DNA of 32,000 nt from Candidatus Methylomirabilis sp. (lineage in GTDB: Bacteria > Methylomirabilota > Methylomirabilia > Methylomirabilales > Methylomirabilaceae), in contig NZ_JAQUOY010000011.1 in assembly GCF_028716865.1 (NCBI RefSeq), positions 28,337-60,336 on the forward strand. The letters run 5' to 3'. This document shows, one piece after another, positions 1 through 32,000 of this stretch (within the stretch, counting starts at the first letter, position 1; every line of letters starts with the position of its first letter). Under the pieces are notes generated by a model. It made no database searches. It saw only the letters and a list, made by a program, of their open reading frames with translations, and had not been told where the DNA came from. The translations under genes were made by a program, and so were the position numbers.

Positions 1-30
1 TGATAGTAAGTACCTTAGGTTCTTGCATAC

Positions 31-1671: not shown

Positions 1672-1679
1672 CAAACGGT

Positions 1680-2015
1680 ATGCAAGCAGAAGAAAGGCAG
1701 TGGATCCGAAAGTGCAGACTCGAGACGACCGCCCAGGTCTTGGACCGAGGCTGGGACCGGATGCTCACCTTTTACTAATTTCCCAAAGCACACTGGGTCC
1801 ACCTGCGGACGAGTAACCCGATCGAGTCGCCCTTCGCCACTCTCAGGCTGCGGACGGATGCGGCGACACGGTTCAAGCGAGTGAAATACGCGACTGCGGT
1901 CATCTGGAAGATGCTGTTCATCGCCAAGCAGCGGTTCCGACGACTGAACGGCCCAGAGTTGCTGAGGGAGGTCTACCACGACGCACAATGCGTCACCGGC
2001 GTGCGAGTCGGGGAT
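1680..2015 (+). pseudogene. IS256/Mutator-family transposase, C-terminal remnant with an in-frame stop
   Basis: My own translation of the + frame in phase with 1680 gives ...GWDRMLTFY*FPKAHWVHLRTSNPIESPFATLRLRTDAATRFKRVKYATAVIWKMLFIAKQRFRRLNGPELLREV.... This matches the conserved C-terminal block of Mutator-type (IS256 family) transposases (FPxEHW.HLRTTNPIESTFATVRLR ... RW.RLNG). A TAA at 1776-1778 interrupts the frame. The N-terminal roughly 300 aa, including the catalytic region, are absent. The patch is GC-rich inside an AT-rich island. Confidence 0.7.
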
Positions 2016-2034
2016 AATTTCTATTTTAGGGATT

Positions 2035-3429
2035 CTACTTAGCATAATTTGAATTTGCGATAGTTGGAAATAGGTATGTGATTTCTGGAATCCCCAGTAC
2101 AATATTATTTACCCATTCCACTCCCTGTAACAAAGAATGATCCTGATTCCCTACTTCATATTTCCACCCCCCAAAACGCCCCCTTGAATATACCCCAAGA
2201 TTGTCTAAGGTAGGAATTAAGGCATTGATTATTGCATCCCTCTTTAAGGAGGGTACAGGATAGCCATAATCTGCCGTGTGTGTCCAGATAGAAACAATAT
2301 CTGACCTTGATTCGATCAATTTCGTATTTAACAAACCATTTATTGTCTCTTCGATCAGAGTAGATCTCTCAACTGGCTTCCTGGGTGATTCGCTGGTCTC
2401 CGTCATAAGTGACCAGTATTGGTTAATATCAGGTACGTTGTTTGGACTATAATTTGAAAAGACCGTTACCCTATAAAAGGGGCAATTAGATTCAGGAAAA
2501 TACATCCAGCATTTTGTAGAGAGCGTATCCTTTGGTTCACCCCTCAAACCTATCCCGACTATGTGAGAAGTGGAATGCATTAAATCTCCGGCGATTTCTC
2601 TTAATCCCTCTGGCACTCCAGCGACAATCGAGGTTAGGATATCTAACGGCATTGTTGATAACAAATATTGATACTCAATAACATCACCGTTAGAAAGCTC
2701 TACCCTTTTTTCTCTGGGTTTAATTCTTATAACAGTTGAATTTAATCTTACGTGCTTTAAGCCTATCAAATTTGCAACAGCATGCCAGATCGCCCCTGTG
2801 CCACCTTCTTTTGGGAATCTAAAGGTGTTATTCGGTCCCCAGCTATGATCGTCCTTTTCAAAAAGAATGCTCTCCAACACCTTTTCAATATCAGTTAAAT
2901 TGACCCGTTCTCCTATCCACTGATACGCCATCTCCTGTGGCGGATATGCCCAAACCTTGTAGTTGTAAGGGATCATAAATTTTTCAGCAATACCCTGACC
3001 AAATCGCGCCTCTATCCATTCCATAAAATTATTTCTTTTTGTATGATTTGTATTTTGAATAGTCGTTATAAGACCTTTAAGACAATGCCACATCGACTCT
3101 TTTGGTAAGTAACGTATATTGTTCTGAAATGGATAAGGTACGAAACGATCTTCTATCCATATCCATGATTCTCTGTGATGGTGTAACCAGCCATCCTTTC
3201 CCAGCGCATTATGCATCAATTCATCGAAGTATTTATAATGTGAAAATAGGACATGTCCTCCTATGTCCCATGTAAAACCACGATCGTCTACAAAACTTGT
3301 GGATAGACCTCCTATTAGGCCAGACTTTTCCAGGACCACAAAATCATCTTCTCCCAATTCCTTCAGGCGATACGCCGCCCCCAGACCTGTGGGACCTGAT
3401 CCAATAATCACATATTTAATGTATTCCAT
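2035..3429 (-). CDS. glf: UDP-galactopyranose mutase, eukaryotic (fungal/kinetoplastid) type flavoenzyme
   Basis: Track ORF 2035..3435. The first two codons are GTG and an ATG lies at 3429. FAD dinucleotide motif VIIGSGPTGLGAA. Block-by-block resemblance, recalled from memory, to fungal UGM: GGHVLFSHYKYFDELM, VPYPFQNNIRYLPKE, PYNYKVWAYPP, WGPNNTFRFPKEGGTG, KCWMYFPESNCPFYRVTVFSNYSPNN, YGYPVPSL, SRGRFGGWKYEVGNQDHS. It is about 465 aa long, versus about 370-400 aa for classical bacterial Glf, and it lacks the classical bacterial Glf motifs. Confidence 0.85.
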   Translation of the reverse strand: MEYIKYVIIGSGPTGLGAAYRLKELGEDDFVVLEKSGLIGGLSTSFVDDRGFTWDIGGHVLFSHYKYFDELMHNALGKDGWLHHHRESWIWIEDRFVPYPFQNNIRYLPKESMWHCLKGLITTIQNTNHTKRNNFMEWIEARFGQGIAEKFMIPYNYKVWAYPPQEMAYQWIGERVNLTDIEKVLESILFEKDDHSWGPNNTFRFPKEGGTGAIWHAVANLIGLKHVRLNSTVIRIKPREKRVELSNGDVIEYQYLLSTMPLDILTSIVAGVPEGLREIAGDLMHSTSHIVGIGLRGEPKDTLSTKCWMYFPESNCPFYRVTVFSNYSPNNVPDINQYWSLMTETSESPRKPVERSTLIEETINGLLNTKLIESRSDIVSIWTHTADYGYPVPSLKRDAIINALIPTLDNLGVYSRGRFGGWKYEVGNQDHSLLQGVEWVNNIVLGIPEITYLFPTIANSNYAK

Positions 3430-3570
3430 CACCACTGTCCGGTTGTTGGGTCATTCCATTGCTATAACTGCTGACACTGCGACAAGTAACGGTCCTTAGG
3501 GTTTTTCGCCGGTTTGCTCAGGCGACTACCGGCAATGACGCACACCTAGAAGCTGTAGGGAGGCGAGAAA

Positions 3571-4638
3571 CTACCGTTTCGTATCAAAGCCGGGTTCACT
3601 GTATAAAATCTTTCCTGCCCTTGAATTATCAAACCTGCTTATGAGACCATCGAAATACGCACACGTAATAAGCTTGATTCTCCTGTATTTATAATCATCT
3701 AATAGCAATATACCAACCGAATACCTGATATAAGATTTAAGGAGGCCAAAATAAAAGCGCCATCTTCTAATCGTATTTGTTTTCCCGAGCCAGATCAGAT
3801 TTCTATGAAAATAAAAAAGTACCCAGAGCCTGTCATATGGGATTCTCGGAGATCTTCGCCATAAAAAATTTTTGTTTATTCTCGAACTGTTAGTCTGTTC
3901 TTCGTGAATAACAATACTGTTGGTTATTAGCAATACCTTGCCAACTTTTTTCAGTCTCATAAAATATTCTAAATCGTCGTGCTGGGAGAAAAATTCTTTT
4001 TTTGGGAAACCAATCCCGTTTATGGCGCGCCTATGTATTAAGACCCCTACAAAAGAAGCAAAGTCTATCTCTATCGAATTCTGTTTAGAATATGCATCTA
4101 TCGATAACGGTTCCTGAATCAAAGGGAAAACATTCTTAAAATTAAAATACCCCCGATGCATTAGCTGAATTTCACCATTATCGCCCTTAACCACACAAGC
4201 CAATGCATACACATTTTCCTCGGTACAATAATCACACAATTTTTTCAATGCGTCTTCTTCGGGCGCAGCATCATCATCCATGAGCCATAGCCAATCATAC
4301 CCCATTCTGTAAGCTCTTTTAACCCCCTCATGAAAGCCTCCTGCTCCTCCTGTATTCTTCTTCATTCTAATGTAATAGAATTTAGTCTTACCCTGGTTAA
4401 ATGCATTTTCTACTATCGATTCTTTTTCAAAGTCATCACTACATATTTCAATAGGAAAATTCTTCATATAACCGTTCTTGGTTAACATTTCCGGTGTCCC
4501 ATCTGAAGATGCATTGTCAATCAAAAAGATGGCATCTAATGTTCTTGACTGTTTCATTAAAGATTCCAGACACCGAGATAGAAGCAACCTTCTATTGTAC
4601 GTAACTATCACGGCACAAAAAGTCGTTTGGCAATTCAT
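3571..4638 (-). CDS. Family-2 glycosyltransferase, candidate galactofuranosyl- or rhamnosyl-transferase type
   Basis: ATG at 4638. Motifs FCAVIVTYNRR...LIDNASSDGT and WLWLMDDDAAPEE (DxD) are typical of the GlfT/WbbL-like GT2 subgroup. It lies directly upstream of the UGM on the same strand. Sugar specificity is inferred from that adjacency only. Confidence 0.8.
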   Translation of the reverse strand: MNCQTTFCAVIVTYNRRLLLSRCLESLMKQSRTLDAIFLIDNASSDGTPEMLTKNGYMKNFPIEICSDDFEKESIVENAFNQGKTKFYYIRMKKNTGGAGGFHEGVKRAYRMGYDWLWLMDDDAAPEEDALKKLCDYCTEENVYALACVVKGDNGEIQLMHRGYFNFKNVFPLIQEPLSIDAYSKQNSIEIDFASFVGVLIHRRAINGIGFPKKEFFSQHDDLEYFMRLKKVGKVLLITNSIVIHEEQTNSSRINKNFLWRRSPRIPYDRLWVLFYFHRNLIWLGKTNTIRRWRFYFGLLKSYIRYSVGILLLDDYKYRRIKLITCAYFDGLISRFDNSRAGKILYSEPGFDTKR

Positions 4639-4656
4639 TTACATTGCCCAAGAGGA

Positions 4657-4872
4657 TTACTTATTAACCGTCTCATCATAGACTGCACCCTGCGGCATAC
4701 CGTGCGGTAGCGTCATTGAAGTAACATACTGTCCCCCTGAGGTCTTGTCAAGAGATGCGCAACGACCCACTATACAAGATAGACATTGCCGTGATGTCAG
4801 CATGGGCTGATCACCATCGATTGACAGCCCCGTGACCAGCATGACCTTCAGGCGTGCGAGGTTGATCGTCAT
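4657..4872 (-). CDS. Small ORF (71 aa) at the island junction; possible 5' fragment of a truncated gene
   Basis: The ATG at 4872 overlaps the GT4 stop codon by 1 nt (TGATG), the same junction architecture as wzm/wzt. The ORF reads MTINLARLKVMLVTGLSIDG...CLSCIVGRC.... It terminates within about 20 nt of the switch from GC-rich to AT-rich sequence. I recognised no family. Confidence 0.25.
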   Translation of the reverse strand: MTINLARLKVMLVTGLSIDGDQPMLTSRQCLSCIVGRCASLDKTSGGQYVTSMTLPHGMPQGAVYDETVNK

Positions 4873-6443
4873 CAATCCGCGCCGAGCAGGGCGCGGATGG
4901 GATGGCGTAACCATCGGATCGGTGTCGTGAGCTTCCAGAACGTGGATGAAAGGATAGCGTCCAGCGTTTCGCGATAACGACGGGCTTCTGCATCAAGTTC
5001 ACTGGCCCCCTTTTCCAGCTCCGATACACGCAGAAGCTGCTCCCGCAACGCAGCGTCCCGTTCCTGGACAAGGGCCGTCGCCGCGGTTTCGGTCTGCATA
5101 AGGCGCGACTCCAGATTCGCAAGAGCCTCCTCGCGCTCCCGGACCTGCTGCTGGGCGTGGACGAGTAACTTCAGATAGGGTGCGGACGTCTCTACCTTCG
5201 GCCGGCTGGTCTGAGTGGCATCCTCATAGATCTTCTCCAACATGGCGACATGGGCCTTCATTGACAAGAGTGTCTCGATCCGGATGCCCAGGCGCATCGC
5301 CTCCAGCACCTCCGGCGCGTCTAGGATCTCCTGGAGGCGCCGGGCCAGATCCTCTGCATCCTCAGCCCGAAAGGTCAGGCCGGCCTTCCCAATCCGCTCC
5401 GAAAGAGCGCCGCGGTCCGAGGCGAGGACCGGCAGCCCCAACCGCATCGCCTCGTCAATGGTAAACGAATAGGATTCACTGGTAATGGAAGGGAAGACAG
5501 CAAGATCAAGATCAAACGCCTGCAGGTCGGCCGGCTGATAGGCGCCATGGAATTGCACCGAGAGGCCGCGCGCAAGATCGTGAAGTCGTTCCCCATATGC
5601 CTGGTCTAAGGCTGTTCCGATCAGATGGACCTGCACTGCCGATGGATCGTCCAGACGATGCAGCGCCTCGAGGAGCAGGTGCGTACCTTTATGGTACAGG
5701 AAATAACCCCAATGCCCGATCTGAAGCGGTCGATCTGGGAACACTGCTGCCCCCTTCCGCCTCTCCTGCGCTATGATGGTCTGGGCACTCCCATGCGGGA
5801 GAACAATCAAGCGGTTCTCCGAAAGCTCAAGCAGCTCAAGCAGCAATGAACGGTGAGCTTCTGACGGTACGATGAGGGCTGAGGCCAGCGCAAGTTCCTC
5901 CCCTATCATCTGTTGACGTAATGTCAGTGCAGCAGCGACCTCCCGATCCGTCTGCCATTGAGTTCGCTCGACACAGTGCAGACACGGTGCGGTCAAGAGG
6001 GGCTCGCTGCAAAACGACCCCTCTCGGTGGATCCGATGGATTCGTGGGCAGGAGGTCCAGACATCGTGCAGCGTCACCACCACAGGAATACTTAGGTCCG
6101 CACAGATCGCCACTAGGTTATTGGTCAGTCGGTGCCAGTGATGCACATGGACGATATCCGGCCGACACGAAGTCAGGGTGCTCCGCAATACTTGCTCCAC
6201 CTCCGGATCGTATCCGTCTATCCATCCATAGTCTCGTCCTTCCGCGCGGTAATACCGCGTCACATCGTGGCCGTCCTGCTCTGTCGTGACGGTCGTCGCC
6301 TTCGCAGCCGGCTGTCCCGTTCCGGCGAATACCGCCACTGTATGACCGCGAGCTCGCAACTGCGCACAGACAGCCTCGCAGTAGCGCTCCGTACCTGCAT
6401 TCGACTCAGATGGAAAACCGTGAACGATCTGAAGGATTCTCAT
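4872..6443 (-). CDS. GT4 (group 1) glycosyltransferase with a roughly 110-aa C-terminal coiled-coil tail
   Basis: ATG at 6443. N-terminus MRILQIVHGFPSESNAGTERY is typical of GT-B/GT4 enzymes. EX7E motif SESYSFTIDEA. The C-terminal part (from about aa 410) is heptad-like and rich in E/A/L/R/Q, ending in SSTFWKLTTPIRWLRHPI. Confidence 0.85.
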   Translation of the reverse strand: MRILQIVHGFPSESNAGTERYCEAVCAQLRARGHTVAVFAGTGQPAAKATTVTTEQDGHDVTRYYRAEGRDYGWIDGYDPEVEQVLRSTLTSCRPDIVHVHHWHRLTNNLVAICADLSIPVVVTLHDVWTSCPRIHRIHREGSFCSEPLLTAPCLHCVERTQWQTDREVAAALTLRQQMIGEELALASALIVPSEAHRSLLLELLELSENRLIVLPHGSAQTIIAQERRKGAAVFPDRPLQIGHWGYFLYHKGTHLLLEALHRLDDPSAVQVHLIGTALDQAYGERLHDLARGLSVQFHGAYQPADLQAFDLDLAVFPSITSESYSFTIDEAMRLGLPVLASDRGALSERIGKAGLTFRAEDAEDLARRLQEILDAPEVLEAMRLGIRIETLLSMKAHVAMLEKIYEDATQTSRPKVETSAPYLKLLVHAQQQVREREEALANLESRLMQTETAATALVQERDAALREQLLRVSELEKGASELDAEARRYRETLDAILSSTFWKLTTPIRWLRHPIRALLGAD

Positions 6444-18741: not shown

Positions 18742-20265
18742 ATGACGCAGACAACGCGCGTTCTCTTCATCCTTGCGATGTGCATTGCCTTTACCTCCGG
18801 ATGCGTGAGCCAGCCGCGCGTTCCGCCCACACGCCCGGTGGCCGAGAAACTGCAAGCTCCCAGGGAAGGACCGGAGTTTCCAAGCCTCATGGCCGCCCTC
18901 GGTCCCAAAGGCGAGCTGTACCTGGTCTTTCACACGATCGACAGGGACACCAAGCTTCTTCAAGCCCTGTTCGCTCGCTCGACCGATCTTGGAGTAACCT
19001 GGGACAAGTCCCCTGTCCAGCTCTTCAGCACCACCGATCAAGACGTCTCGGTGAGTCTTCCGATCATCCAGACTGATGAAAAAGGGGGCATCTACCTTGT
19101 CTGGCGATGGAAGCGCCAGGGGATCAAACACATCTTTTTCACTCGATCGCTCGATGGGGGCCGGACGTGGCCTGGCCAGCCGACCCAGTTGGCGATTCCC
19201 GGCCAACCGTTCGCGCCCCTGATGGATGTCGATCCCACAGGCCATCTCTCCCTTCTCTGGCAGGACGAAGAGCAAGGCAAAAAGGGGTTCTGGTTTGTCG
19301 GGTCGATCGATTCCGGCGCCACATGGCAGGCGGAACCGGTCCGGCTCACTGCCTCTTCCCCCTCGACGGCCCGCCTCTATACACCCGGTCTCACGTCAGA
19401 CGGCAGAGGCCACGTCTACGCAGTCTGGCATGAAGTGGACCACAGCCCTCCTCACTTTACCCACTCGATCAAGCTGAATCGGTCGGCCGACTTTGGAGCC
19501 ACGTGGCTGCCGTCCGCTGAGACGGTGTATAGTACGCCGCACCATAGTCCGCCGTGGCCGGTTCATCCTTCTCTGTTCGCGGAGAGCGACGGGCACGTCT
19601 ACCTGCTCTGGCAGGAGTACGATTCTACCGGCATCTACGACCTCTACTTTATTCGCTCCGACGATGCCGGCGTGACGTGGCATCCGAAGGTCCGTCTGAA
19701 CACGACCCCACCGCGGGAGGCGATGGCCCGACATCACCAGTTGGCCTTCGATGGCCGAGGGAATCTCTACGCGGTCTGGGTGTCAGAGCACGACCAAGAC
19801 ACCATGATCGCCTTTCGCCGCTCGACAGACTTCGGTGAAACCTGGGGTCCGGAACTACGCCTTGATGAGCGCAAGCGGGGCGTCAACGCTCTGTCCCCAG
19901 TCATCGTCACCGACGTGAAGGGCCATGTCGTTACAGTGTGGCAACAAGAGGAGCGGAAGGGGTGGGGTGTGTATACCAACCGGTCCGACGATTTCGGTGT
20001 CACCTGGCTTCCCCGGCCTCTCCGGTTGGATACCCTCCCCGAGCGCGCCTCGCATCCGCGCCTGATCCAGCTTTTGAGCGATCGGACTGGACACCCGTAC
20101 GTCGTGTGGCGTGGAGATCCTTTTGGCAAGGAAGACTTCTTCATGACCCGTTCCACAGACCATGGCAAGAGCTGGCTACCGAAGGAGCAGTGGCTGACCG
20201 ACCCCTCGGAGCTCCACCTTCGCCAGGCAGCGGTCCAGGACGGAGGACCGCCATCGCGCCCATGA
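18742..20265 (+). CDS. Lipoprotein with eight BNR/Asp-box repeats (beta-propeller, sialidase/Ycf48-like fold class)
   Basis: SD AGGAGGGA upstream. Signal and lipobox-like FILAMCIAFTSG|C. Eight S-x-D-x-G-x-(T/S)-W boxes (STDLGVTW, SLDGGRTW, SIDSGATW, SADFGATW, SDDAGVTW, STDFGETW, SDDFGVTW, STDHGKSW) are spaced about 55-60 aa apart. Each is preceded by a G-x-(V/I/L)-Y-(L/A/V)-V-W strand. Confidence 0.85.
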   Translation: MTQTTRVLFILAMCIAFTSGCVSQPRVPPTRPVAEKLQAPREGPEFPSLMAALGPKGELYLVFHTIDRDTKLLQALFARSTDLGVTWDKSPVQLFSTTDQDVSVSLPIIQTDEKGGIYLVWRWKRQGIKHIFFTRSLDGGRTWPGQPTQLAIPGQPFAPLMDVDPTGHLSLLWQDEEQGKKGFWFVGSIDSGATWQAEPVRLTASSPSTARLYTPGLTSDGRGHVYAVWHEVDHSPPHFTHSIKLNRSADFGATWLPSAETVYSTPHHSPPWPVHPSLFAESDGHVYLLWQEYDSTGIYDLYFIRSDDAGVTWHPKVRLNTTPPREAMARHHQLAFDGRGNLYAVWVSEHDQDTMIAFRRSTDFGETWGPELRLDERKRGVNALSPVIVTDVKGHVVTVWQQEERKGWGVYTNRSDDFGVTWLPRPLRLDTLPERASHPRLIQLLSDRTGHPYVVWRGDPFGKEDFFMTRSTDHGKSWLPKEQWLTDPSELHLRQAAVQDGGPPSRP

Positions 20266-20302: not shown

Positions 20303-22420
20303 ATGCCGAAGGGCGTGACAAGCAAGTCGCGACCGCCACAGTGGGAGGGCCACCGCAGGACAGAACGCCGACCTCCCCTCTCCCCAATCGGCTCCTTGTC
20401 TGAAAGCGAGCATCTTAAGATTAAGAGGCCGGACAGGCATAAGAGTTGGCTGGCCGCGGGGTGGTGGGTGGTGGCTGCCGCTGCCGCTGCCATCTACGCC
20501 AATGCGCTCGGCAACGGCTTCGTTGGCGATGACTACCCCATGATCTTACGAGACCCGCGGATCCGGGATCTCAAGAATATCCCGTCCTTTTTCATTCCCC
20601 CTGTTGCGTCGACACACGAGGTAATCGCGACGTATGGCTACCGCGTGACGATCGAGATCGCCCATACTATCGACTACTGGCTGTTCGGCCTCGAACCATG
20701 GGGATACCACGCCACCAATATCCTCTTTCACATCGTGGCCTCCACGCTCGCCTTTCTCATTGCCACCCGCCTGCTCGGAAAGTTGCTCCCGGCCCTCTTC
20801 GTGGGCCTCCTCTTTGCCGTCCATCCATCTCAAACGGAAGCCGTCGCCTATGTGACCGGCAGAAATGACGAACTCTACAGCATCTTTTATCTGGCGGGCT
20901 TTTACAGCTTTCTCCGCTACCGGGAACAGCCCAGCCGGCATTACCTGATTGGTCTCGTCTCCGCATTCGTGCTGTCCCTTCTCTCCAAGGAGGCAGGGGT
21001 CACCTTGCCGCTGACCCTGCTGGTCTTTGATAGCATCATGGGATTGACGTTCGAAGACCATCGGCAAGGCCCGACCCTGAGAGACTGGCGGCAGAGCCTC
21101 CGTGCCAGTTGGTACCGGTTCCGGCCTCTCTACCTCATGTGCTTCTTCCTCGCGGGGATCTTTGCCTATTACGTGGTCGCCTACAGCGCCGCCAGCGGCA
21201 AGAAGGAGTTCTGGGGAGGGGGGCTGGGGCCGACTCTCCTTACCTCGGCCCGAATTCACCTGCACCACATGATGCTCGTCCTCTTCCCTGCTACGCTCAG
21301 CGCCGATTACTCCTACAATGCATTTCCCGTATCGAGCACCATCTTCGACCCTGTCGGTCTGATAACGGTCGTGGCTGTAGCGACCATCCTGTACGGGTTG
21401 ATCCGGCTCGCCAGGGTCTCCCGAGTGGCCACTTTCGGCGGTCTCTGGTTCTTCATCACCCTCCTGCCTGTCTCCCAGCTCGTGCCCCATCATATCCTGA
21501 TGGCGGACCGCCATCTCTACCTGCCTTCGTTCGGCTTATTCCTGATGGCAGGCGTCCTGGTTGACAGGCTACACGAACATGGGCGCGCTCGTCAGCTTCT
21601 CTACACCTGTACTGCCGCCGTGCTGTTGATCCTGTCCGCCCGGACAGTCGTCCGAAACCGCGACTGGCGGGACGATTTCACGCTCTCGAGTAAGACCGTC
21701 CAGACGTCCCCCCAATCAGCTCTAGCCCATGTCGCCCTCGGCGAAATCCTCCGCAGGCGAGGCCGACTCGACCAGGCGGAGCGGGAATTCCGAACAGCGC
21801 TTGGCATTCATCCGAGCGAGCCCAAGGCCCACGCGGGAATGGGGGCCCTGCTCGCCATGCGGAAGCAGTGGGCCGAGGCGGAGCGGGAGCTGAAAATGGC
21901 CATGGAGCTGAACCCACTCTCCGATTACGGCCATCTGGAGCTCGGACGACTCTATCAGCTCCAAGACAGGTGGACCGAGGCCGAAGCAGAGCTGAAGCGC
22001 GCAGTGCAGCTATGGCCCAACTTCGACGAGGCCCACCTGAACCTGGGATTGGTCTACCTCAACCAAGGACGGCTGGCGGAGGCAGAGCGAGAGGTGTGGA
22101 CAGCCCTGGAGATTACGCCACGTCTGGCAGACGCGCACCTGGCACTGGGCCGCATAGCGCTTCAGGGTGGCCGAACGGACGAGGCCCTCGCCCACTTCCA
22201 GACCTCGGTTAAGCTGAAGCCTGACAACGCGTTCGCCCGCAACAACCTGGGTGTGCTGTACATACAAATGGGCCAGATCGAACCGGCGCTGGAGGAGTTT
22301 CAGGCCGCCCTCCGGATTACCCCGAATTTCGTCGAAGCCAGAGACAACCTTTGCCGGCTTTACTTGCGCCAAGGCCGTGTCGCCAATGCGGAAGCGCTTT
22401 GCCCCCGGCAATCGCACTGA
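20303..22420 (+). CDS. TMTC/PMT-like GT-C membrane glycosyltransferase fused to a C-terminal TPR array (paralogue 1)
   Basis: The N-terminal multi-TM domain (about 10 hydrophobic segments) opens with IYANALGNGFVGDDYPMI directly after TM1, the acidic loop-1 motif position of PMT/TMTC enzymes. The C-terminal part carries about 7 TPR units (AHVALGEIL...ARDNLCRLYLRQG). The exact start is uncertain. Confidence 0.8.
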   Translation: MPKGVTSKSRPPQWEGHRRTERRPPLSPIGSLSESEHLKIKRPDRHKSWLAAGWWVVAAAAAAIYANALGNGFVGDDYPMILRDPRIRDLKNIPSFFIPPVASTHEVIATYGYRVTIEIAHTIDYWLFGLEPWGYHATNILFHIVASTLAFLIATRLLGKLLPALFVGLLFAVHPSQTEAVAYVTGRNDELYSIFYLAGFYSFLRYREQPSRHYLIGLVSAFVLSLLSKEAGVTLPLTLLVFDSIMGLTFEDHRQGPTLRDWRQSLRASWYRFRPLYLMCFFLAGIFAYYVVAYSAASGKKEFWGGGLGPTLLTSARIHLHHMMLVLFPATLSADYSYNAFPVSSTIFDPVGLITVVAVATILYGLIRLARVSRVATFGGLWFFITLLPVSQLVPHHILMADRHLYLPSFGLFLMAGVLVDRLHEHGRARQLLYTCTAAVLLILSARTVVRNRDWRDDFTLSSKTVQTSPQSALAHVALGEILRRRGRLDQAEREFRTALGIHPSEPKAHAGMGALLAMRKQWAEAERELKMAMELNPLSDYGHLELGRLYQLQDRWTEAEAELKRAVQLWPNFDEAHLNLGLVYLNQGRLAEAEREVWTALEITPRLADAHLALGRIALQGGRTDEALAHFQTSVKLKPDNAFARNNLGVLYIQMGQIEPALEEFQAALRITPNFVEARDNLCRLYLRQGRVANAEALCPRQSH

Positions 22421-23419: not shown

Positions 23420-24358
23420 TTATTTCAGGATGACATCGATCGGGGGATCGCTTTCGCGGTTTGACCCGTAGACGATCATTTCTGCCAGGAGACCAAAGGA
23501 GACAAGTTGAATCCCGCCAATGACCATGAGGGTACCCAGTATAAAGAGCGGACGGGACCCGATCCATTGACCAAACAGCCAGCCGACCGACAGGTAGGCG
23601 ACGATGCCAAAGCCAATCAACCCCACGACAACACCTAGCAAGCCGAAGAAGTGAAGCGGGCGAGTCGTATAACGGGTGAGTATCAGGACCGTCAGCAGGT
23701 CGAAGAAGCCCCGCGGGATTCGCTCAGCCCCGTACTTCGACCGGCCATACTTTCTCGGGTGGTGCGCGACCTCGATCTCACCGATCCTGAACCCACGCCA
23801 ACTGGCCAGTACCGGGATAAACCGGTGAAGCTCCCCGTAGAGTCTCATTTCCTGAATCACCACGCGTCGATAGACCTTGAACCCGCAGTTGAGGTCGTGG
23901 AGCTTGACCCCGGTCAGCCGGCAGGTGACCCGATTGAAGATGGCCGACAGGAACCGCCGAGACCAGGGATCGCGGCGCGTCGCCTTCCAGCCAGAGACCA
24001 GATCGTACCCCTCCTCCAACTTTTGCAGGAACCGGGGGATCTCCTTGGGATCGTCTTGCAGATCGGCATCCAAGGTGATGATCACTTCGCCCCTGGCCTC
24101 CCGGAATCCAGCCGTCAGTGCCACGGCTTTCCCCTGGTTACTCCGAAGTCGAATGGCCTTGAGCCGCTTGTCCCCCTCTTGCAGGCATTTCAACGCCTCG
24201 AACGAGCCGTCGGTGCTACCGTCGTCCACATAGATCATCTCGCACCGGTCGGCAAACGGCAGTAGGGCCGCTGCCAGCGCAGCGTGCAGTTCGGGTAGGC
24301 TTTCGGCCTCGTTGTACAGTGGGATCACCACGGAGAGTTCCGGATGGCCTGCCGTCAT
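23420..24358 (-). CDS. GT2 polyprenyl-phosphate glycosyltransferase, GtrB/ArnC-like with two C-terminal TM helices
   Basis: Motifs LSVVIPLYNE, IYVDDGSTDGS, NQGKAVAL, ITLDADLQDDP, SGWK..R.D. Two C-terminal hydrophobic helices are present (LHFFGLLGVVVGLIGFGIVAYL; LFILGTLMVIGGIQLVSFGLLAEMIV). Its ATG overlaps the upstream TMTC-like gene's stop (ATGA). Confidence 0.88.
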   Translation of the reverse strand: MTAGHPELSVVIPLYNEAESLPELHAALAAALLPFADRCEMIYVDDGSTDGSFEALKCLQEGDKRLKAIRLRSNQGKAVALTAGFREARGEVIITLDADLQDDPKEIPRFLQKLEEGYDLVSGWKATRRDPWSRRFLSAIFNRVTCRLTGVKLHDLNCGFKVYRRVVIQEMRLYGELHRFIPVLASWRGFRIGEIEVAHHPRKYGRSKYGAERIPRGFFDLLTVLILTRYTTRPLHFFGLLGVVVGLIGFGIVAYLSVGWLFGQWIGSRPLFILGTLMVIGGIQLVSFGLLAEMIVYGSNRESDPPIDVILK

Positions 24359-26157
24359 GGCACTGCTCCCCTTACCGGTTCAACCGTCAGCCCGCCGCTC
24401 CCCCGGAGACGCTGTAATCGCGCTAAGTTCTGCTGGGCCTCGCTGAGGTCGGGTATCCGGGCAAGCGCCGCCCGGAATGCCGCCTCTGCCTCCGCCATCC
24501 GACCATCCTTGGCAAATAGGACGCCCAGATTGTTGTGCGCATAGGCATCATACGGGGCTTTAGCCAGCGCCGCCCGAAACTGTTGTTCCGCCTCGGGTAC
24601 CCGCCCCATTCGCACTAAGACCGTCCCAAGCCACAGATGTGGAATCATCTCGCCTGCGTTCAGCCGAACGGCCGTCTGGAGTTCCCGCTCTGCCCGCTCC
24701 AGGTCATCCCGGTCAAAAGCGATCTTGCCGAGGTTGCCGTGAGCGGTCGCGAAATCGGGCTGGAGACGCACCGCTGTTTCTATCTCCTCTTCAGCTCGCG
24801 CAATCTCCCCGCGACGGAGGTACGCCGACCCCAGATTATTCCTGGCCCTCGCCGTCTGTGGTGCGACCTGTACCGTCTGGCTCCAGAGGGTCAGGTCATC
24901 CCTCCAATCAGTGTTCCGCCAGACCGTACGGAGAGACAAGAGGAGAAGAACCACAGCACCAGCCACATAGAGCGCCGGGGCGGCCTTTGGGTGATCCACC
25001 AGCGGGTCTAAGAGCCCCGCAATCATCAGGAAAAATCCAACCGATGGAGTATAGAGGAAGTGCTCGGCCATCATATCATGATGGGGGATGATCTGTGAGA
25101 CCGGGAGCAGCGCGGCAAAAAACCACACGCCACCGATGGCGACTATTGGTTTGGTCCTCAGGCATCTCAGCACGCCATATCCGAGCGCCGCAAGGATCAG
25201 GACAGCCGCTAGTGCTTCTGCGTCCGTCCAGGAGGTAGTGACAGGGAACGCAGAGTAGTCGACATTAAGCGTGAGCGGGAAGATCAACAGCTTGATGTAA
25301 TGGAGGAAGACCCTGGCCATGGTGAGTCCGGTGAACCAGAGGCTCCCACCATAATAAGTCCGCACCCAAGTCCCGCGAACGAAGAAAAGGACGTAGAAGG
25401 CCAGCCCTCCTCCTAGAACAACCAATGGCATGTAGAATAGGCGGGCTTCACGAACAGCGGACCAGGCGCAGGTCCCGATCTCCTGAAGGGTCGGAATACC
25501 GGGGGTCGATTCCTTGGCCTGAATCCGGCTGATCAGGTCATAGCCGAAACAGAGTAGCGGCAGGATGATGCCGCTCTCTTTTGAAAAGAACGCCAGCGGG
25601 TACACGAGCAGTACGGAGGCGAGGTATCCTGCCCGGCCGGTCTGTCGGTACCGGAGGAACAGATACAACCCCAGTAGAACAAAAAAGCCGGCCAGCACAT
25701 CCCGCCTGCCGGATAGGTATGTCACCGACTCTGTCTGAATGGGATGAATAGCAAAGAGGATCGCCGTAAAGAGGGCCGGGGTCAGTCGCTTGAACAGGCT
25801 CTGGGCAATCAGGAACACAACAACGGCTGAGAGGGTATGATAGGCAATATTGCTCAGATGATAGCCCCACGGGTCGCGGCCGGAGAGGGCGTAGTCGAAG
25901 GCATACGAGGCGCTCCGAATGGGGCGGTATGCCGCCCCGCCCTTCAGCAAGCTGGAGAGCTGACCGAAGTGCCCTGACCCTCCAGCGGTCTGCTCAGCAA
26001 CAATCGTTTCTAGGTCATCGAACAGAAACTCGTTGTGGAGCGAGTTGGCGTACACGAGCCAGGTGATCGCTGCAACGACAAGGACAGGCCACAGGCGTGA
26101 AGGCGACCATCGCGTTGCCGTCACGGTTGATCGCGCTTCAGCTCTTCTCTTTTTCAT
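24355..26157 (-). CDS. TMTC/PMT-like GT-C membrane glycosyltransferase fused to a C-terminal TPR array (paralogue 2)
   Basis: ATG at 26157. Same architecture as 20303..22420: TM1, then VYANSLHNEFLFDDLETI, then a multi-TM domain, then about 4-5 TPR units (ARNNLGSAYLRRG...AHNNLGVLFAKDG). Confidence 0.8.
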   Translation of the reverse strand: MKKRRAEARSTVTATRWSPSRLWPVLVVAAITWLVYANSLHNEFLFDDLETIVAEQTAGGSGHFGQLSSLLKGGAAYRPIRSASYAFDYALSGRDPWGYHLSNIAYHTLSAVVVFLIAQSLFKRLTPALFTAILFAIHPIQTESVTYLSGRRDVLAGFFVLLGLYLFLRYRQTGRAGYLASVLLVYPLAFFSKESGIILPLLCFGYDLISRIQAKESTPGIPTLQEIGTCAWSAVREARLFYMPLVVLGGGLAFYVLFFVRGTWVRTYYGGSLWFTGLTMARVFLHYIKLLIFPLTLNVDYSAFPVTTSWTDAEALAAVLILAALGYGVLRCLRTKPIVAIGGVWFFAALLPVSQIIPHHDMMAEHFLYTPSVGFFLMIAGLLDPLVDHPKAAPALYVAGAVVLLLLSLRTVWRNTDWRDDLTLWSQTVQVAPQTARARNNLGSAYLRRGEIARAEEEIETAVRLQPDFATAHGNLGKIAFDRDDLERAERELQTAVRLNAGEMIPHLWLGTVLVRMGRVPEAEQQFRAALAKAPYDAYAHNNLGVLFAKDGRMAEAEAAFRAALARIPDLSEAQQNLARLQRLRGSGGLTVEPVRGAVP

Positions 26158-27446: not shown

Positions 27447-27581
27447 AGCGCGCGAGTCCACTCCAAGGGAACGTCCCGTTTCCCACGCCCGATATCCAGC
27501 CGTGCGATCCTCTGCCTGATGGCTTCCCTGCGACTACTGGCGGCCAGAGTGGGTTTTCACTCGCGCCAGGGAATCCTAGTA

Positions 27582-27617
27582 TAGTGTCTCAGCACGAACA
27601 GTCATGGTGAGACACTA
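27582..27617. repeat. Perfect 10-bp inverted repeat (hairpin) in a long intergenic region
   Basis: TAGTGTCTCA (27582-27591) pairs with TGAGACACTA (27608-27617), with a 16-nt loop. No U-tract follows on either strand. Confidence 0.5.
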
Positions 27618-27690
27618 CCATCACACTGATACAGGGCCCACGGGACTATCCTCTCACATCACACCATGAAATCTCTTGCTACTCGCCAAT

Positions 27691-27712
27691 AATAGGTGAT
27701 TTACCACCTATT
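27691..27712. repeat. Perfect 8-bp palindrome with a 6-nt spacer (operator-like)
   Basis: AATAGGTG (27691-27698), ATTTAC, CACCTATT (27705-27712). It lies in the most AT-rich part of the 420-bp region upstream of the ydbH-like gene. Confidence 0.5.
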
Positions 27713-27869
27713 GAACTTATACTAGGCCCATTTTCGCACTTGTCAAGAGACTTCTTGGGAAACAGATGGGAAACGGAACAAACATAGTCCCCCCTGCCCC
27801 AGCACAATCAGGGACACCGGTGGCAGGCTTGGCAAGAGGACATAACTGCCGTGTTGATGATAGATTTGC

Positions 27870-30614
27870 TTGCCATCTCTCGCCCTTCTTGCGTATGGTT
27901 GTGCTGAGGTTACATGTGTCCCTTTTAACTGGAGAGTTTTACGATTGAAAACGCTTAAATCGGCACTGATCGTTCTGCTGCTGGGGCTGACGACCGCTGC
28001 CGTCGTTGGCGTGCTTCTGCTCACGTTCCTCCTACCCACCCTCCTCCAGCAGTTCGCCTGCGCGCCGTATGGGATTCGCTGCGCCGTCGGGCAGGCCAAC
28101 ATCCGCCTCCGCCAGAACCTGACCGCAGACCTCGTGATTGACCATCTCACACTGTTTGACCCGGATGGCCGAGGTGTGGCGCTGCAGGTGAAGCGTCTCG
28201 CCACCACGCTGAACATTCCGGCGCTGATCCTCACGCACCAGGTCATGCCGACCGAGGTCCGGATCGAGAGCCCGGAACTGCTGCTCAGGCAGCTCGACGA
28301 TGGCCGGTGGAATCTAGTGGCGTTGGCTCAGGAGGTACAGCAGCATCTGCGGCCCACCACCCGGCCCACAACATTGCAACTCCCCCGAGCCTCTGTAACC
28401 GCCGGAACGCTTCAGATCGGCGGCCATCGAGTCACCGATCTAAATGTGACGCTCGAGCCGAAGCCGGCCCCTTTACTGTTTGAGATGCAGGCGCGGGCCG
28501 CCGTCGGTGGACGATCGGTTCAGGTCAGCGGCGCCTTGAAGAATACGCTCGAGGGGCAGATCCTGGCGCAGGTCCAGGAGACCATGCTGCGGGGCGCACT
28601 GCGGTTTCGCCTTGATCAGTTGGGTCGCGCCGTGACTATTCCCGAATGGTCGTTCGAGGCGGATGGGGCGATGGCTCGCGGGTCAGCGGCCATTCGATAT
28701 GCCAACTGGCCGCCCGCCTATATGCTAACCGTCGCGCAGTGGCGGGCAGGTCTCACGGTATTGGCACATCGGCTCTCCTTCTCCGGGCTTGCAGACCTGA
28801 CGGGCACGATAGAGGGCGAGCCGACTACGCTGCAGGGCCACTGGCTGGAGCTGCCTGTCGGAGAGGTCACGGCCACGCTCAGAGACGGTGGACTGGAGGT
28901 CGCTAAGCCGCGATTCGGGGTCACGGGGCTCAGTGGACGTCTCAACCTCTCGTTGCCGGACGGAGACCGCCCATGGAAGGCGGAGATGATGAGCCGATCG
29001 ATACAACTGCACGCTGCCACCATGGATGGTGCGACAACACTGCAAACCGCTCAGATCGCCGTGCAAGGGATTGGGATATCGGGGCGTGATCTTCAAGGCA
29101 CACTCGCCATTGGACAGGTCAACCTCACTGGTCGGCAACTGCGCGCACTCAGGGCCAGGTTTGAAATAGACCCTGACCAGGTTCGAATCTCGGAGTTTCA
29201 TGTTGCCGTTGGTGATGGGAATGTCCGTGGCCACGCCTCGTTTTCGAGGTCTACGCCCCTGCAAGAGACGCGCGTGGCGCTTTCGGTACGCGGCCTCCGC
29301 CCGCAGTCGTTGTTCACCCCCACCGAAAAGCCGGCAGCGCGACAAGGAGTTACGCTCGATGCCGACCTCTTCGCAGACGCTACATTCGGCGGATCGCAAC
29401 CTCCTGCTGCCGGCGGCGCGATGACGCTTCGAGGCCTCTCGCTTAGCCTGGCACGGCAAGCGGCTGAGCCGGTGCCTCTGCTCACGGGTATCCGCGGCGA
29501 AGTCGCTTTCACCCTCGACAGGGGCCTGCTGACGATCAAAGAGACGACCCTTCGGATCGACGGAGGACTGACGCTCACCCTCGCAGGCAGTCTGCCGCTC
29601 GGCCATAACGACCGCAGCGCGACCCGGTTTCACGTGACCGTCCCCTGGACAGAGGTCGCCGCGCTCCGCTCCCCACTGACCGCCATGACGGGAGGTCGGC
29701 CTGATGCAACTCGCCTCACCGGTCAACTTCAGGCAAACCTCGAGCTCATCGACCAGGAATATCACGCAGCGCTTTCCCTGCGAAACGTCGGTATAGAATC
29801 GAGCAGCTTCCGTCTGGACAGCGCAAGCGGCGTAATCCCGCTGCGCGGACGGATCGATCAGGGTCCGACTGTACCCCTGCACCAGGTCGCGGCCCAGCAG
29901 AGAGCACGCTGGTCCCAGCTCACCAAACGTGAGTATCGCGCGGCACTGGAGAGGTTATCGAACGTGGCGGACCGGACGCCATTCTCGCTGACTATCGGCT
30001 CACTCCGCTACGACCCGATCGAGCTTCGCAATATCGAGGTCGCCCTCGCCTCGTCCGGAAACCAGATCGCCGTACAGCGGTTTGTTTTTGACGCCTCGGG
30101 CGGGCGGTGGAGCGGCTGGGGAACGGTCGAGCCGCTGGGCGGGGGGATCGCTCTGGCCTTGCTCACGGAGGGACTCAGCCTGCGCGCAATTTGTGATGCC
30201 TTTCCGCCGATCACAGGGTATATTAACGGTCGGATCAACGGGATGGCCGACCTCGAGGTTCCGCACTTTGCCCTCGACCAGGCACAAGGCAGCGCGCGAT
30301 TCTGGGCTGTAGACTCCCCGCAAGAGAAGCGAAGGATCAGCCGCACCCTAATCGAACAGTTGGCGGGACAGCAGATCCGCTATTTCAGCCTGTTTGGAGT
30401 AGCTCGCCGCTATAATCGCGGCGTGCTGGAGGTGGCCTTGAAAGCGAGCGATCTGATCTTTCACGAACTTGAAATTTCCCACACGATCCTGGGGTATAAG
30501 GATCTGGATGTTCGAGTCTCGCCTGTCTTTAACAGGATCGGGTTAGCTCACCTGCTCGAGAGCATCGGCGAAGCAGCCGAGCGGATCAGAGCCTCGGCCA
30601 AGCCGAACCACTAA
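27870..30614 (+). CDS. ydbH: AsmA-superfamily, YdbH-like intermembrane lipid-transfer (bridge) protein
   Basis: N-terminal membrane anchor (ALIVLLLGLTTAAVVGVLLLTFLL), then about 850 aa of beta-rich, low-complexity-free sequence typical of AsmA/TamB/YdbH proteins. C-terminal block ...GYINGRINGMADLEVP...RYNRGVLEVAL.... The main evidence is synteny with a DUF1318/YdbL-like gene 40 nt downstream. A TTG at 27945, with GGAGAG 8 nt upstream, is a plausible alternative start. Confidence 0.75.
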   Translation: MPSLALLAYGCAEVTCVPFNWRVLRLKTLKSALIVLLLGLTTAAVVGVLLLTFLLPTLLQQFACAPYGIRCAVGQANIRLRQNLTADLVIDHLTLFDPDGRGVALQVKRLATTLNIPALILTHQVMPTEVRIESPELLLRQLDDGRWNLVALAQEVQQHLRPTTRPTTLQLPRASVTAGTLQIGGHRVTDLNVTLEPKPAPLLFEMQARAAVGGRSVQVSGALKNTLEGQILAQVQETMLRGALRFRLDQLGRAVTIPEWSFEADGAMARGSAAIRYANWPPAYMLTVAQWRAGLTVLAHRLSFSGLADLTGTIEGEPTTLQGHWLELPVGEVTATLRDGGLEVAKPRFGVTGLSGRLNLSLPDGDRPWKAEMMSRSIQLHAATMDGATTLQTAQIAVQGIGISGRDLQGTLAIGQVNLTGRQLRALRARFEIDPDQVRISEFHVAVGDGNVRGHASFSRSTPLQETRVALSVRGLRPQSLFTPTEKPAARQGVTLDADLFADATFGGSQPPAAGGAMTLRGLSLSLARQAAEPVPLLTGIRGEVAFTLDRGLLTIKETTLRIDGGLTLTLAGSLPLGHNDRSATRFHVTVPWTEVAALRSPLTAMTGGRPDATRLTGQLQANLELIDQEYHAALSLRNVGIESSSFRLDSASGVIPLRGRIDQGPTVPLHQVAAQQRARWSQLTKREYRAALERLSNVADRTPFSLTIGSLRYDPIELRNIEVALASSGNQIAVQRFVFDASGGRWSGWGTVEPLGGGIALALLTEGLSLRAICDAFPPITGYINGRINGMADLEVPHFALDQAQGSARFWAVDSPQEKRRISRTLIEQLAGQQIRYFSLFGVARRYNRGVLEVALKASDLIFHELEISHTILGYKDLDVRVSPVFNRIGLAHLLESIGEAAERIRASAKPNH

Positions 30615-30654
30615 GCTACAGTCATTGAGGACCGTAGACAGAAGGAGGACGTGG

Positions 30655-31329
30655 ATGCGCCGGTACCGAAAACAGCTTACGATGCTCACCCTGAGCGCTC
30701 TATTCAGCTTCGCCGCGTGCGCGGTCATTACGGTCAACGTCTATTTTCCGGAAAAGGATGTCAAGTCGGCCTACAAGTCGCTGGAAGAGGAGCTGCTTCA
30801 GCCGGCTCCGAAGAAGGAAAAGAATGCAGCGCCGGTAGAGCCGCCAACGTCCGGCCTGCGGCAAGAGCGGCAAACCCTGCTGGCCGTCATCCGTGCATGG
30901 CGAATGACGTTGGTGACCGAAGCCATGGCCCAGGACGATCTCTCGCGGCGGATTGCGCAGGAGATTAAGGGCTATCCTGAGGTAATCGCCGCGTATAGGG
31001 GGATCGGGCAGCGACTCGCCCGGCTGAATCAGCTTCGAGATCAGGGATTGGTGGGTGAGGCGAAAGATGGGAAGGCGATCTTACGCGCGAATCCCCCCCA
31101 GGTGGGCGAGGCGGAAGCCGCGCTGCTGCAGGAGGAAAACAGGGACCGCGAGGTCGTCATCAACGGAATGGCCAAGGCGATCCTCAAGCTGACCCAGCAA
31201 GAAGGAACCCCTGCGAATCTGGCGAGGGTGAGGACGGATGCCGCCGACACCTTTGCGTCGATCCGCCGCGACGCGGCTCACCCGGGCTGGTGGGTACAGC
31301 TTCCGAACGGAACCTGGACGCACAAGTAA
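30655..31329 (+). CDS. Lipoprotein with an N-terminal YnbE-like segment and a C-terminal YdbL (DUF1318) domain
   Basis: I chose the ATG at 30655, with AGGAGG 6 nt upstream. Lipobox-like LFSFAA|C. The segment after the Cys, ITVNVYFPEKDVKSAYKSLEEELL, resembles YnbE (recalled ...ITINMNVKIEHE...KDVEELL). The C-terminus GLVGEAKDG...LLQEENRDREVVINGMAKA...GWWVQLPNGTWTHK parallels E. coli YdbL (GRVGE...INAERK...GEYVQGINGKWVRK). Confidence 0.7.
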   Translation: MRRYRKQLTMLTLSALFSFAACAVITVNVYFPEKDVKSAYKSLEEELLQPAPKKEKNAAPVEPPTSGLRQERQTLLAVIRAWRMTLVTEAMAQDDLSRRIAQEIKGYPEVIAAYRGIGQRLARLNQLRDQGLVGEAKDGKAILRANPPQVGEAEAALLQEENRDREVVINGMAKAILKLTQQEGTPANLARVRTDAADTFASIRRDAAHPGWWVQLPNGTWTHK

Positions 31330-31358: not shown

Positions 31359-32000
31359 CTACTGGTCTTCGTACTTGGCTTTCAACTCGGCCACCACATT
31401 GGCGTCTGCCAGCGTGGTGGTATCGCCCAGCGCCCGGCCTTCGGCAATATCACGCAGCAGGCGGCGCATGATCTTGCCGCTGCGGGTTTTGGGCAGCTCG
31501 GCCGTAAAGATCAGGTCGTCCGGCCTGGCGAAGGCGCCGATCTTCTTGACGACATGCGCCTTGATCTCCGCCTGAAGCTCTGGGGTGGGTTTAGTGCCGT
31601 CCCGGATGGTTACAAAGGCGGCGACAGCCTGCCCCTTGATCTCGTGGGTGCGACCGATGACGGCTGCTTCAGCCACGCACGGGTGATCCACGAGGGCCGA
31701 TTCCACCTCCACCGTCGAGACACGATGTCCCGACACGTTCATCACGTCATCGACGCGACCCAGCAGCCAGAAATCGCCATCCTTGTCCCGACTGGCTCCG
31801 TCACCGGTGAAGTAGATACCTTTATAATTCGACCAGTACTGCTTGACGTAGCGGTCAGGGTCGCCCCAGATCCCGCGGAGCATACCGGGCCAGGGCTGAC
31901 GTAGTACGAGGTATCCGGTCGTGGCTGGTCTGCCGTTCTCATCGACGACCTCCGCGTCGATTCCCGGGAAGGGCTTGGCAGCCGAGCCGGGCTTGAGCGT
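31359..32000 (-). CDS. acs: Acetyl-CoA synthetase (AMP-forming), C-terminal part; the gene continues beyond the window
   Basis: The frame is open to the right edge: ...TLKPGSAAKPFPGIDAEVVDENG...WPGMLRGIWGDPDRYVKQYW...TGDGASRDKDGDFWLLGRVDDVMNVSGHRVSTVEVESAL...LPKTRSGKIMRRLLR. These are canonical Acs C-terminal motifs, including the catalytic-Lys region SGKIMRR. Confidence 0.92.
   Translation of the reverse strand, partial: TLKPGSAAKPFPGIDAEVVDENGRPATTGYLVLRQPWPGMLRGIWGDPDRYVKQYWSNYKGIYFTGDGASRDKDGDFWLLGRVDDVMNVSGHRVSTVEVESALVDHPCVAEAAVIGRTHEIKGQAVAAFVTIRDGTKPTPELQAEIKAHVVKKIGAFARPDDLIFTAELPKTRSGKIMRRLLRDIAEGRALGDTTTLADANVVAELKAKYEDQ

Follow-up and report, generated by a model that had tools for sequence, protein, structure and literature searches.

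A 32,000-nucleotide stretch of DNA from Candidatus Methylomirabilis sp. (contig NZ_JAQUOY010000011.1, positions 28,337 to 60,336 of the forward strand; hereafter the window) carries two adjacent genes that encode an AsmA-like bridge protein and, 3′ of it, a lipoprotein ending in a YdbL-type (DUF1318) domain. A first-pass annotation of the window had described a 914-residue YdbH-like protein followed, 40 nucleotides (nt) downstream, by a 224-residue lipoprotein in which YnbE and YdbL, the products of separate genes in the ydbH-ynbE-ydbL operon of Escherichia coli, appeared to be fused through a linker retaining the relic of a signal peptide. The features of the pair, in window coordinates, are as follows.

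27945–30614, forward strand: gene of the AsmA-like bridge protein, 889 residues; probable start at TTG 27945 with GGAG upstream; product identical to database protein P0121.
29940–30611, forward strand: most conserved stretch of the large protein (C-terminal ~220 residues) and its proposed docking end, from the conservation profile of 77 upstream frames.
30642–30648, forward strand: Shine-Dalgarno sequence AAGGAGG of the lipoprotein gene, located by inspection, with 6 nt separating it from ATG 30655.
30655–30717, forward strand: lipoprotein signal peptide (residues 1–21), recognized in the sequence itself; it ends with the lipobox FAA↓C, whose cysteine (C22) is invariant.
30718–30798, forward strand: strand-plus-helix segment C-AVITVNVYFPEKDVKSAYKSLEEELL (residues 22–48), the proposed YnbE-equivalent docking element, with the highest conservation across 81 loci.
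30799–30894, forward strand: disordered Pro/Glu/Lys-rich tether (residues 49–80), delimited by alignment gaps and variability and by low model confidence.
30895–30933, forward strand: strand-like element with AxAQ (residues 81–93, AWRMTLVTEAMAQ), earlier taken for the relic signal peptide; A90 is invariant.
30934–31329, forward strand: extended YdbL-like (DUF1318) domain (residues 94–224) and stop codon; the PF07027 match covers residues 120–224 (31012–31326).

Both open reading frames, the gap between them and the lipobox stand as first described, but the start of the large gene has probably to be moved. Its longest open reading frame begins at TTG 27870 and would give 914 residues; we take 27945–30614 as the gene because GGAG precedes the TTG at 27945 and because the 889-residue product, which begins MKTLKSALIVLLLGL, is the same as P0121. 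The lipoprotein frame (30655–31329) opens with ATG 30655, 40 nt beyond the stop codon of the large gene. A promoter and terminator scan found no credible terminator between the two genes, and the 420-nt gap 5′ of the bridge gene contains five sigma-70-like promoter matches (27556–27899) against 0.7 expected. The terminator-free gap and the promoter-like cluster are consistent with a single transcript of both genes, an observation that we do not use as evidence below.

The full-length architecture of the lipoprotein is found in at least 636 protein clusters at 90% identity, and a scan of one genome per species recovered at least 470 genomes, from several phyla, that carry a relative. The best 80 loci of these were fetched, and each encodes the full-length lipoprotein as a single gene rather than as two separate ones. 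They comprise 36 loci from Nitrospirota (including Nitrospira and Thermodesulfovibrionales), 19 from Geobacteraceae (including the isolate Geobacter hydrogenophilus DSM 13691), 10 from other Desulfobacterota, 6 from Methylomirabilota, 4 from Dadabacteria, 2 from Spirochaetia and 3 that are unclassified. One of the six Methylomirabilota loci lies on a contig labelled ‘Patescibacteria group bacterium’ (L004, DATMXF010000044.1); the locus is 79% identical to the NC10 lipoprotein and includes the large gene, and the contig is probably a mis-binned Methylomirabilota one. Split versions were sought among the short matches of the search with the joined form, and all of these proved to be truncated fragments or frameshifted calls.

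A large open frame on the same strand lies directly 5′ of the lipoprotein gene at 75 of 81 loci; of the six others, at least three offer too little upstream sequence. The large frame ends anywhere from 46 nt inside to 379 nt upstream of the lipoprotein start; complete frames encode ~680–1300 residues, shorter ones being broken or cut by contig ends, and all are homologous to the window protein (E ≤ 5e-21). No conserved third gene was found around the pair, the best neighbour cluster being present at 12 of ~75 loci. Because the uninterrupted architecture recurs across phyla, paired with a homologous large gene, neither an assembly artefact nor a recent fusion confined to one lineage can account for it. 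The pair is a widespread variant of the E. coli YdbH-YnbE-YdbL system and not a recent gene fusion. Database entries label the relatives of the lipoprotein just ‘DUF1318 domain-containing protein’ or ‘hypothetical’, and the literature searched makes no mention of DUF1318 fusions or of the pairing of an AsmA-like protein with a lipoprotein of this type.

The large protein is an inner-membrane-anchored β-groove protein of the AsmA-like clan (bridge-like lipid transfer proteins) and, contrary to the first-pass annotation, not a member of the YdbH family. In the window protein, the Pfam models DUF748, YhdP and AsmA match at the N-terminus, all below their cut-offs; in eight family members from other phyla DUF748 (PF05359), AsmA (PF05170) or YhdP (PF13116) matches above cut-off. 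The full-length YdbH-like model (PF11739) has no match in the window protein at E ≤ 1, nor at E ≤ 10 in its C-terminal 304 residues; one of the eight family members is matched weakly (16.6 bits against a cut-off of 26.3), and E. coli YdbH, as a control, reaches 970 bits. We also ran a hidden Markov model (HMM) of the family, built from 60-odd full-length members, against the six AsmA-like paralogs of E. coli. It scored 61.6 bits with YicH, 34 with AsmA, 33 with YhjG, 31.5 with TamB and 21 with YhdP, and −2 bits with YdbH; in the same hmmsearch comparison the last ~240 profile positions found no counterpart in these paralogs. By the profile-to-profile method hhalign, the best alignment of the conserved last 260 residues is with residues 430–623 of YhjG (P = 4e-4), and the comparison with YdbH is not significant (P = 0.42). 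A phmmer search with YdbH recovered none of 74 upstream frames. Direct BLASTP comparison with E. coli YdbH, YnbE and YdbL aligned the C-terminal motif of YdbL alone and was uninformative for YdbH and YnbE, and an NCBIfam scan gave nothing useful.

The AlphaFold2 model of the large protein, with a mean predicted local distance difference test (pLDDT) score of 81, consists of a transmembrane helix (residues 2–42), some 50 consecutive β-strands and a C-terminal helix (867–884). Foldseek matches to the whole model include LPD-3 (probability 0.91), ApoB100, LptD and the chorein-N domain of Atg2 (probability 0.99), all at low template-modelling (TM) scores only; these are elongated β-rich lipid carriers, and the matches therefore support the fold class and not a subfamily. 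Conservation across the 77 upstream frames is highest in the C-terminal ~220 residues. Fragments that contain the last 197–264 residues alone still score ~104–111 bits against the window protein, which marks the C-terminus as the best-conserved part of the large protein. The protein encoded in the window is itself a short variant. Missing after its residue 336 is a 119-residue segment present in 77% of aligned relatives (almost all of them NC10), and a variable segment of ~133 residues is missing after residue 477. Groove length appears to vary naturally, since P0124 (897 residues) and P0152 (912 residues), from other contigs, belong to the same short length class.

The C-terminal half of the lipoprotein is a genuine YdbL-type domain, as the first-pass annotation had recognized from its last ~110 residues; a Pfam match, a fold match and the conservation of functional residues all agree on this. 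PF07027 (DUF1318) matches residues 120–224 with 40 bits against a cut-off of 27 (E = 5.9e-10; profile positions 4–92 of 92), and the C-terminal piece alone scores 41.8 bits. The AlphaFold2 model of the 224-residue protein, based on an alignment of 48 homologs, has a mean pLDDT of 78, with an ordered domain from about residue 92 (pLDDT 75 in the block 91–100 and 88–98 from residue 101). Its top and only meaningful Foldseek match in the Protein Data Bank is E. coli YdbL (28oj, a crystal structure of 2026), with probability 1.0, a TM score of 0.80 on the target and a root-mean-square deviation of 2.7 over 101 columns. In an alignment of E. coli YdbL with 56 family members, G31, V33, G34, E35, N58, R61, G94, W104 and K107 do not vary, R28 is retained in 53 of the 56, and the hydrophobic interface positions L24, Y65, L68, I79 and L87 show conservative replacements. 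R28, E35, N58 and R61 are required for YdbL function in E. coli and sit at the interface with the C-terminal helix of YnbE, and W104 and K107 lie at the predicted contact with YdbH (PMC13464000). Two properties set the domain apart from E. coli YdbL: it carries a conserved N-terminal extension of ~28 residues (P108, V110, A113, Y114), and it is not a free periplasmic protein with a Sec signal peptide of its own but forms the C-terminal portion of a lipoprotein.

Among the 48 homologs the lipobox cysteine C22 never varies, and the segment that follows it, A-[VI]-ITVN[VI]YFPEKDVK.AYK.LE.EL, is near-invariant across the 81 loci and several phyla. It is the best-conserved stretch of the lipoprotein, exceeding even the YdbL-type domain. 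Within it, ITVNVYF alternates non-polar and polar residues, forming a potential strand that begins 2–3 residues after the lipidated cysteine. The AlphaFold2 monomer shows the signal-peptide helix at residues 3–21 (pLDDT ~62), coil at 22–31 (~54), a helix at 33–48 (83–87, ~85 overall) and disorder at 51–91 (below 50). The higher confidence of helix 33–48 compared with the isolated signal-peptide helix of the same model suggests that the former is packed against something. The segment thus presents a YnbE-like pattern (lipobox cysteine, alternating strand, short acidic helix), a resemblance of pattern; modelled alone, YnbE is likewise disordered with one helix (PMC11126948).

The tether that follows the helix is rich in Pro, Glu and Lys and variable in both length and sequence, so that 36 to 81 residues separate the cysteine from the AxA motif. 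At the border between this disordered tether and the ordered domain, conservation returns: A90 is invariant and A92 and Q93 are almost so, and AxA[QEA] is present in 75 of 81 family members, most frequently as AYAQ. The motif is preceded by a strand-like element in which hydrophobic residues alternate with others (for example WRMTLV, IRFEF, FKFEF and FSISI); 51 of 75 sequences have three hydrophobic residues spaced by one (φ-x-φ-x-φ) at this place, where shuffled linkers give an expectation of 2.3. Because its near-invariance persists across phyla, the AxAQ motif is functional and under selection, not a decaying neutral relic. Its possible roles are those of a structural cap, of a second strand, with its stop, that extends the groove, or of a processing site.

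We propose, with a probability of about 0.6, that the pair is a lipid-bridge module spanning the envelope, one that functions in the manner of E. coli YdbH-YnbE-YdbL and is built differently. The large protein would be held in the inner membrane by its single N-terminal helix and would span the periplasm with one continuous β-groove, along which lipids could be transported; its lipoprotein partner would reside in the outer membrane. There the ITVNVYF strand would add to the conserved C-terminal end of the groove by β-strand augmentation, as YnbE does on YdbH, and so bring the groove to its end at the outer membrane. Within the pair, conservation is highest at the N-terminus of the lipoprotein and at the C-terminus of the large protein, which we count in favour of such docking. 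The acidic helix EKDVK.AYK.LE.EL (33–48) may occupy the pocket of the lipoprotein's own YdbL-type domain, as the C-terminal helix of YnbE binds YdbL, because the residues that bind the YnbE helix are conserved and the helix is modelled with high confidence. Carried on a disordered tether of ~45 residues, the YdbL-type domain would be fixed at one chaperone per anchor and held at high local concentration, and could keep the sticky strand from associating with itself before it docks. A fixed 1:1 ratio would fit what is known from E. coli, since there the YdbL:YnbE ratio is critical and YdbL restrains the self-association of YnbE (PMC11126948, PMC13464000).

Several observations weigh against this proposal. 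The claim that the first mature residues are YnbE-like could not be upheld at the level of homology. The Pfam YnbE model (PF13617, 34 positions) has no match at E ≤ 10 in any of four N-terminal pieces, and its E. coli YnbE control scores 59.3 bits. A word-indexed search with E. coli YnbE listed 120 matches, all close enterobacterial relatives, and was replaced by an exhaustive profile search of representatives, which yielded 680 clusters; 96 diverse mature YnbE sequences from these were compared, as a profile, with the N-terminal alignment. The hhalign alignment extends over 5 columns only (ITVNV with ITINL; P = 0.03, probability 1.6%), and 9 of 200 column-shuffled controls reach the observed score. 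An ungapped profile comparison chooses the register that places strand on strand and helix on helix (P = 0.07). To judge from sequence comparison, homology of the segment to YnbE is not demonstrable and the resemblance does not clearly exceed chance, so that a YnbE-like role would follow from position and physicochemical pattern. The spacing also differs, the strand beginning 2–3 residues after the cysteine here and 13 after it in YnbE. The large protein is outside the YdbH family, and the analogy with YdbH-YnbE-YdbL therefore crosses subfamilies. Sorting of the lipoprotein to the outer membrane is an assumption, and docking of a lipid bridge leaves both the AxAQ motif and the strand-like element before it unexplained.

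These same results bear on the history first suggested for the pair, in which separate ynbE and ydbL genes were fused 3′ of a ydbH ortholog and the linker is the decaying signal peptide of the former YdbL. The gene order does parallel that of E. coli ydbH-ynbE-ydbL, and the best local match of the N-terminal segment is the functional strand of YnbE. In the NC10 versions, and only there, the stretch before AxA is hydrophobic and resembles a signal peptide that carries an AxA site; a classical signal peptidase I pattern is A[YFWM]A↓Q. The look of a fresh fusion is illustrated by P0286, an enterobacterial sequence from the search of YnbE representatives in which ynbE reads through into ydbL with the internal YdbL signal peptide intact (...DKDVENLLKDQKRSVLGAHMKKPLL...). 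P0286 reflects a sequencing error or else a fusion of very recent date; it indicates that such a fusion would retain an internal signal peptide.

The relic described in the linker is thus present as a segment with an AxA site, but its character changes outside NC10, where it is charged and strand-like. Across the family it carries ~6 charged residues in 22 (for example KPESSIRFEFVSSAYAQE), and the median hydropathy of its best 10 residues is 0.94, compared with 2.66 for true N-terminal signal peptides. The AxA motif lies ~38 residues before GxVGE, compared with 10 in E. coli YdbL, and it is near-invariant, unlike a neutral relic. An origin of the linker in a ynbE-ydbL fusion is also opposed by a large protein outside the YdbH family, by an N-terminal segment without significant similarity to YnbE and by an architecture shared by several phyla. 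The best 150 of the 680 YnbE representatives, moreover, are all 41–120 residues long and include no fused intermediates (a standalone YnbE has ~60 residues, compared with 224 for the lipoprotein here). We therefore regard a fusion of this kind as unlikely.

A second reading asks less of the N-terminal segment. The lipoprotein would be a mere membrane-tethered chaperone of the YdbL type, its N-terminus would serve sorting or another partner, and the true groove-extending partner would be encoded elsewhere or not exist. This would accommodate the insignificant similarity to YnbE, as well as the coil that AlphaFold2 predicts in the monomer in place of a strand. It sits poorly with an N-terminal segment that outdoes the YdbL-type domain in conservation, beyond what a sorting signal needs, and with the strict adjacency of two genes whose loci share no conserved third one. 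The YdbL-type domain, moreover, keeps its helix-binding residues, and the sole conserved acidic helix at hand is its own. For these reasons a chaperone with no part in docking seems improbable to us.

Cleavage after AxA (A92↓Q93) would turn the product into a soluble YdbL-like protein and a lipoprotein of ~70 residues, a 1:1 pair from one gene. The prevalence of AxA[QEA] (75 of 81 members, AYAQ being commonest), its placement exactly at the junction of tether and ordered domain, and the critical YdbL:YnbE ratio in E. coli (PMC11126948, PMC13464000) would all fit. In most lineages, however, the preceding stretch is too polar for a signal peptidase I substrate. Coming after an N-terminal signal peptide, a further hydrophobic segment would also have the wrong topology for signal peptidase I, and we consider a precursor of this kind very unlikely. 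We would give equally long odds to an extended version, in which AxA↓Q is a periplasmic processing site, the lipoprotein half carries two groove-extending strands, and the split proteobacterial ynbE and ydbL genes are the fission product of an older form; if true, AxA cleavage would hard-wire the 1:1 ratio that E. coli balances by expression and DegP turnover. An assembly or frameshift artefact that joined two genes can be dismissed: the same uninterrupted architecture recurs in 80 genomes assembled independently, that of an isolate among them, and in hundreds of clusters, and the short proteins among the matches are truncated or frameshifted rather than split genes.

The docking proposal extends, by analogy, a mechanism that combines a lipoprotein with YdbL to another AsmA-like subfamily and to several phyla. 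A YdbL-type domain is here paired with a non-YdbH bridge protein, nearer to the AsmA, YicH, YhjG and YhdP types, in several non-proteobacterial phyla, and is covalently joined to a lipoprotein that has hardly changed in evolution over its first 27 mature residues. If docking holds, the combination would be a general and ancient solution and not a peculiarity of enterobacteria. The ratio of components, critical in the E. coli system, would be naturally fixed in the tethered form. The presence of the pair in Geobacter makes genetic testing possible, and the pair offers a natural tethered version for the study of bridge assembly.

The bridge operon lies at the edge of a long envelope-glycan cluster (window positions 4872–27446) with GT4/GT1 and GT2 glycosyltransferases, a BNR-repeat protein (18742–20265, forward strand) and two PMT_2+TPR (ArnT-like) membrane proteins (20303–22420, forward strand; 24355–26157, reverse strand). 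Positions 1–5000 have a GC content of 0.36–0.44, compared with ~0.60 elsewhere in the window, and hold three open reading frames (GT2, flavin amine-oxidase-like, GT2); this region is probably a horizontally acquired glycan-synthesis island. On the other side of the pair, the C-terminus of an acetyl-CoA-synthetase-like protein is encoded at 31359–31883 on the reverse strand.

Among known systems, E. coli YdbH-YnbE-YdbL is the closest counterpart. In both, an inner-membrane-anchored β-groove protein of similar length comes first in the operon (889 residues here, 879 in E. coli; PMC11126948, PMC13464000), next comes a lipoprotein in which an acidic helix follows an alternating strand, and then a DUF1318/YdbL domain whose fold and critical residues are shared, in the same gene order. 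As the first-pass annotation recognized, a single polypeptide consisting of a lipoprotein anchor and a genuine YdbL-type domain stands 3′ of an AsmA-like gene, in the slot of E. coli ynbE and ydbL. The two systems differ in the family of the large protein, in the lack of a YnbE model match in the lipoprotein segment, in the extension of the YdbL-type domain and in the covalent union of anchor and domain through a disordered tether. The form described here occurs in Methylomirabilota, Nitrospirota, Desulfobacterota, Dadabacteria and Spirochaetia.

The large protein shares with the AsmA, YicH, YhjG and YhdP type an N-terminal anchor and first groove segment that match the Pfam models, and its C-terminus is nearest to YhjG 430–623. 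None of the E. coli proteins AsmA, YicH, YhjG and YhdP is known to have a DUF1318 gene beside its own or a comparable lipoprotein partner. Docking of AsmA-like bridges at the outer membrane is, as far as we know, described only for TamB (with TamA) and YdbH (with YnbE, aided by YdbL). The pairs TamB-TamA and TamB-TamL resemble the present one in that an AsmA-like bridge docks on a dedicated outer-membrane partner encoded alongside; in contrast, that partner is an Omp85 β-barrel, lipidated in TamL, and not a small lipoprotein with a chaperone domain.

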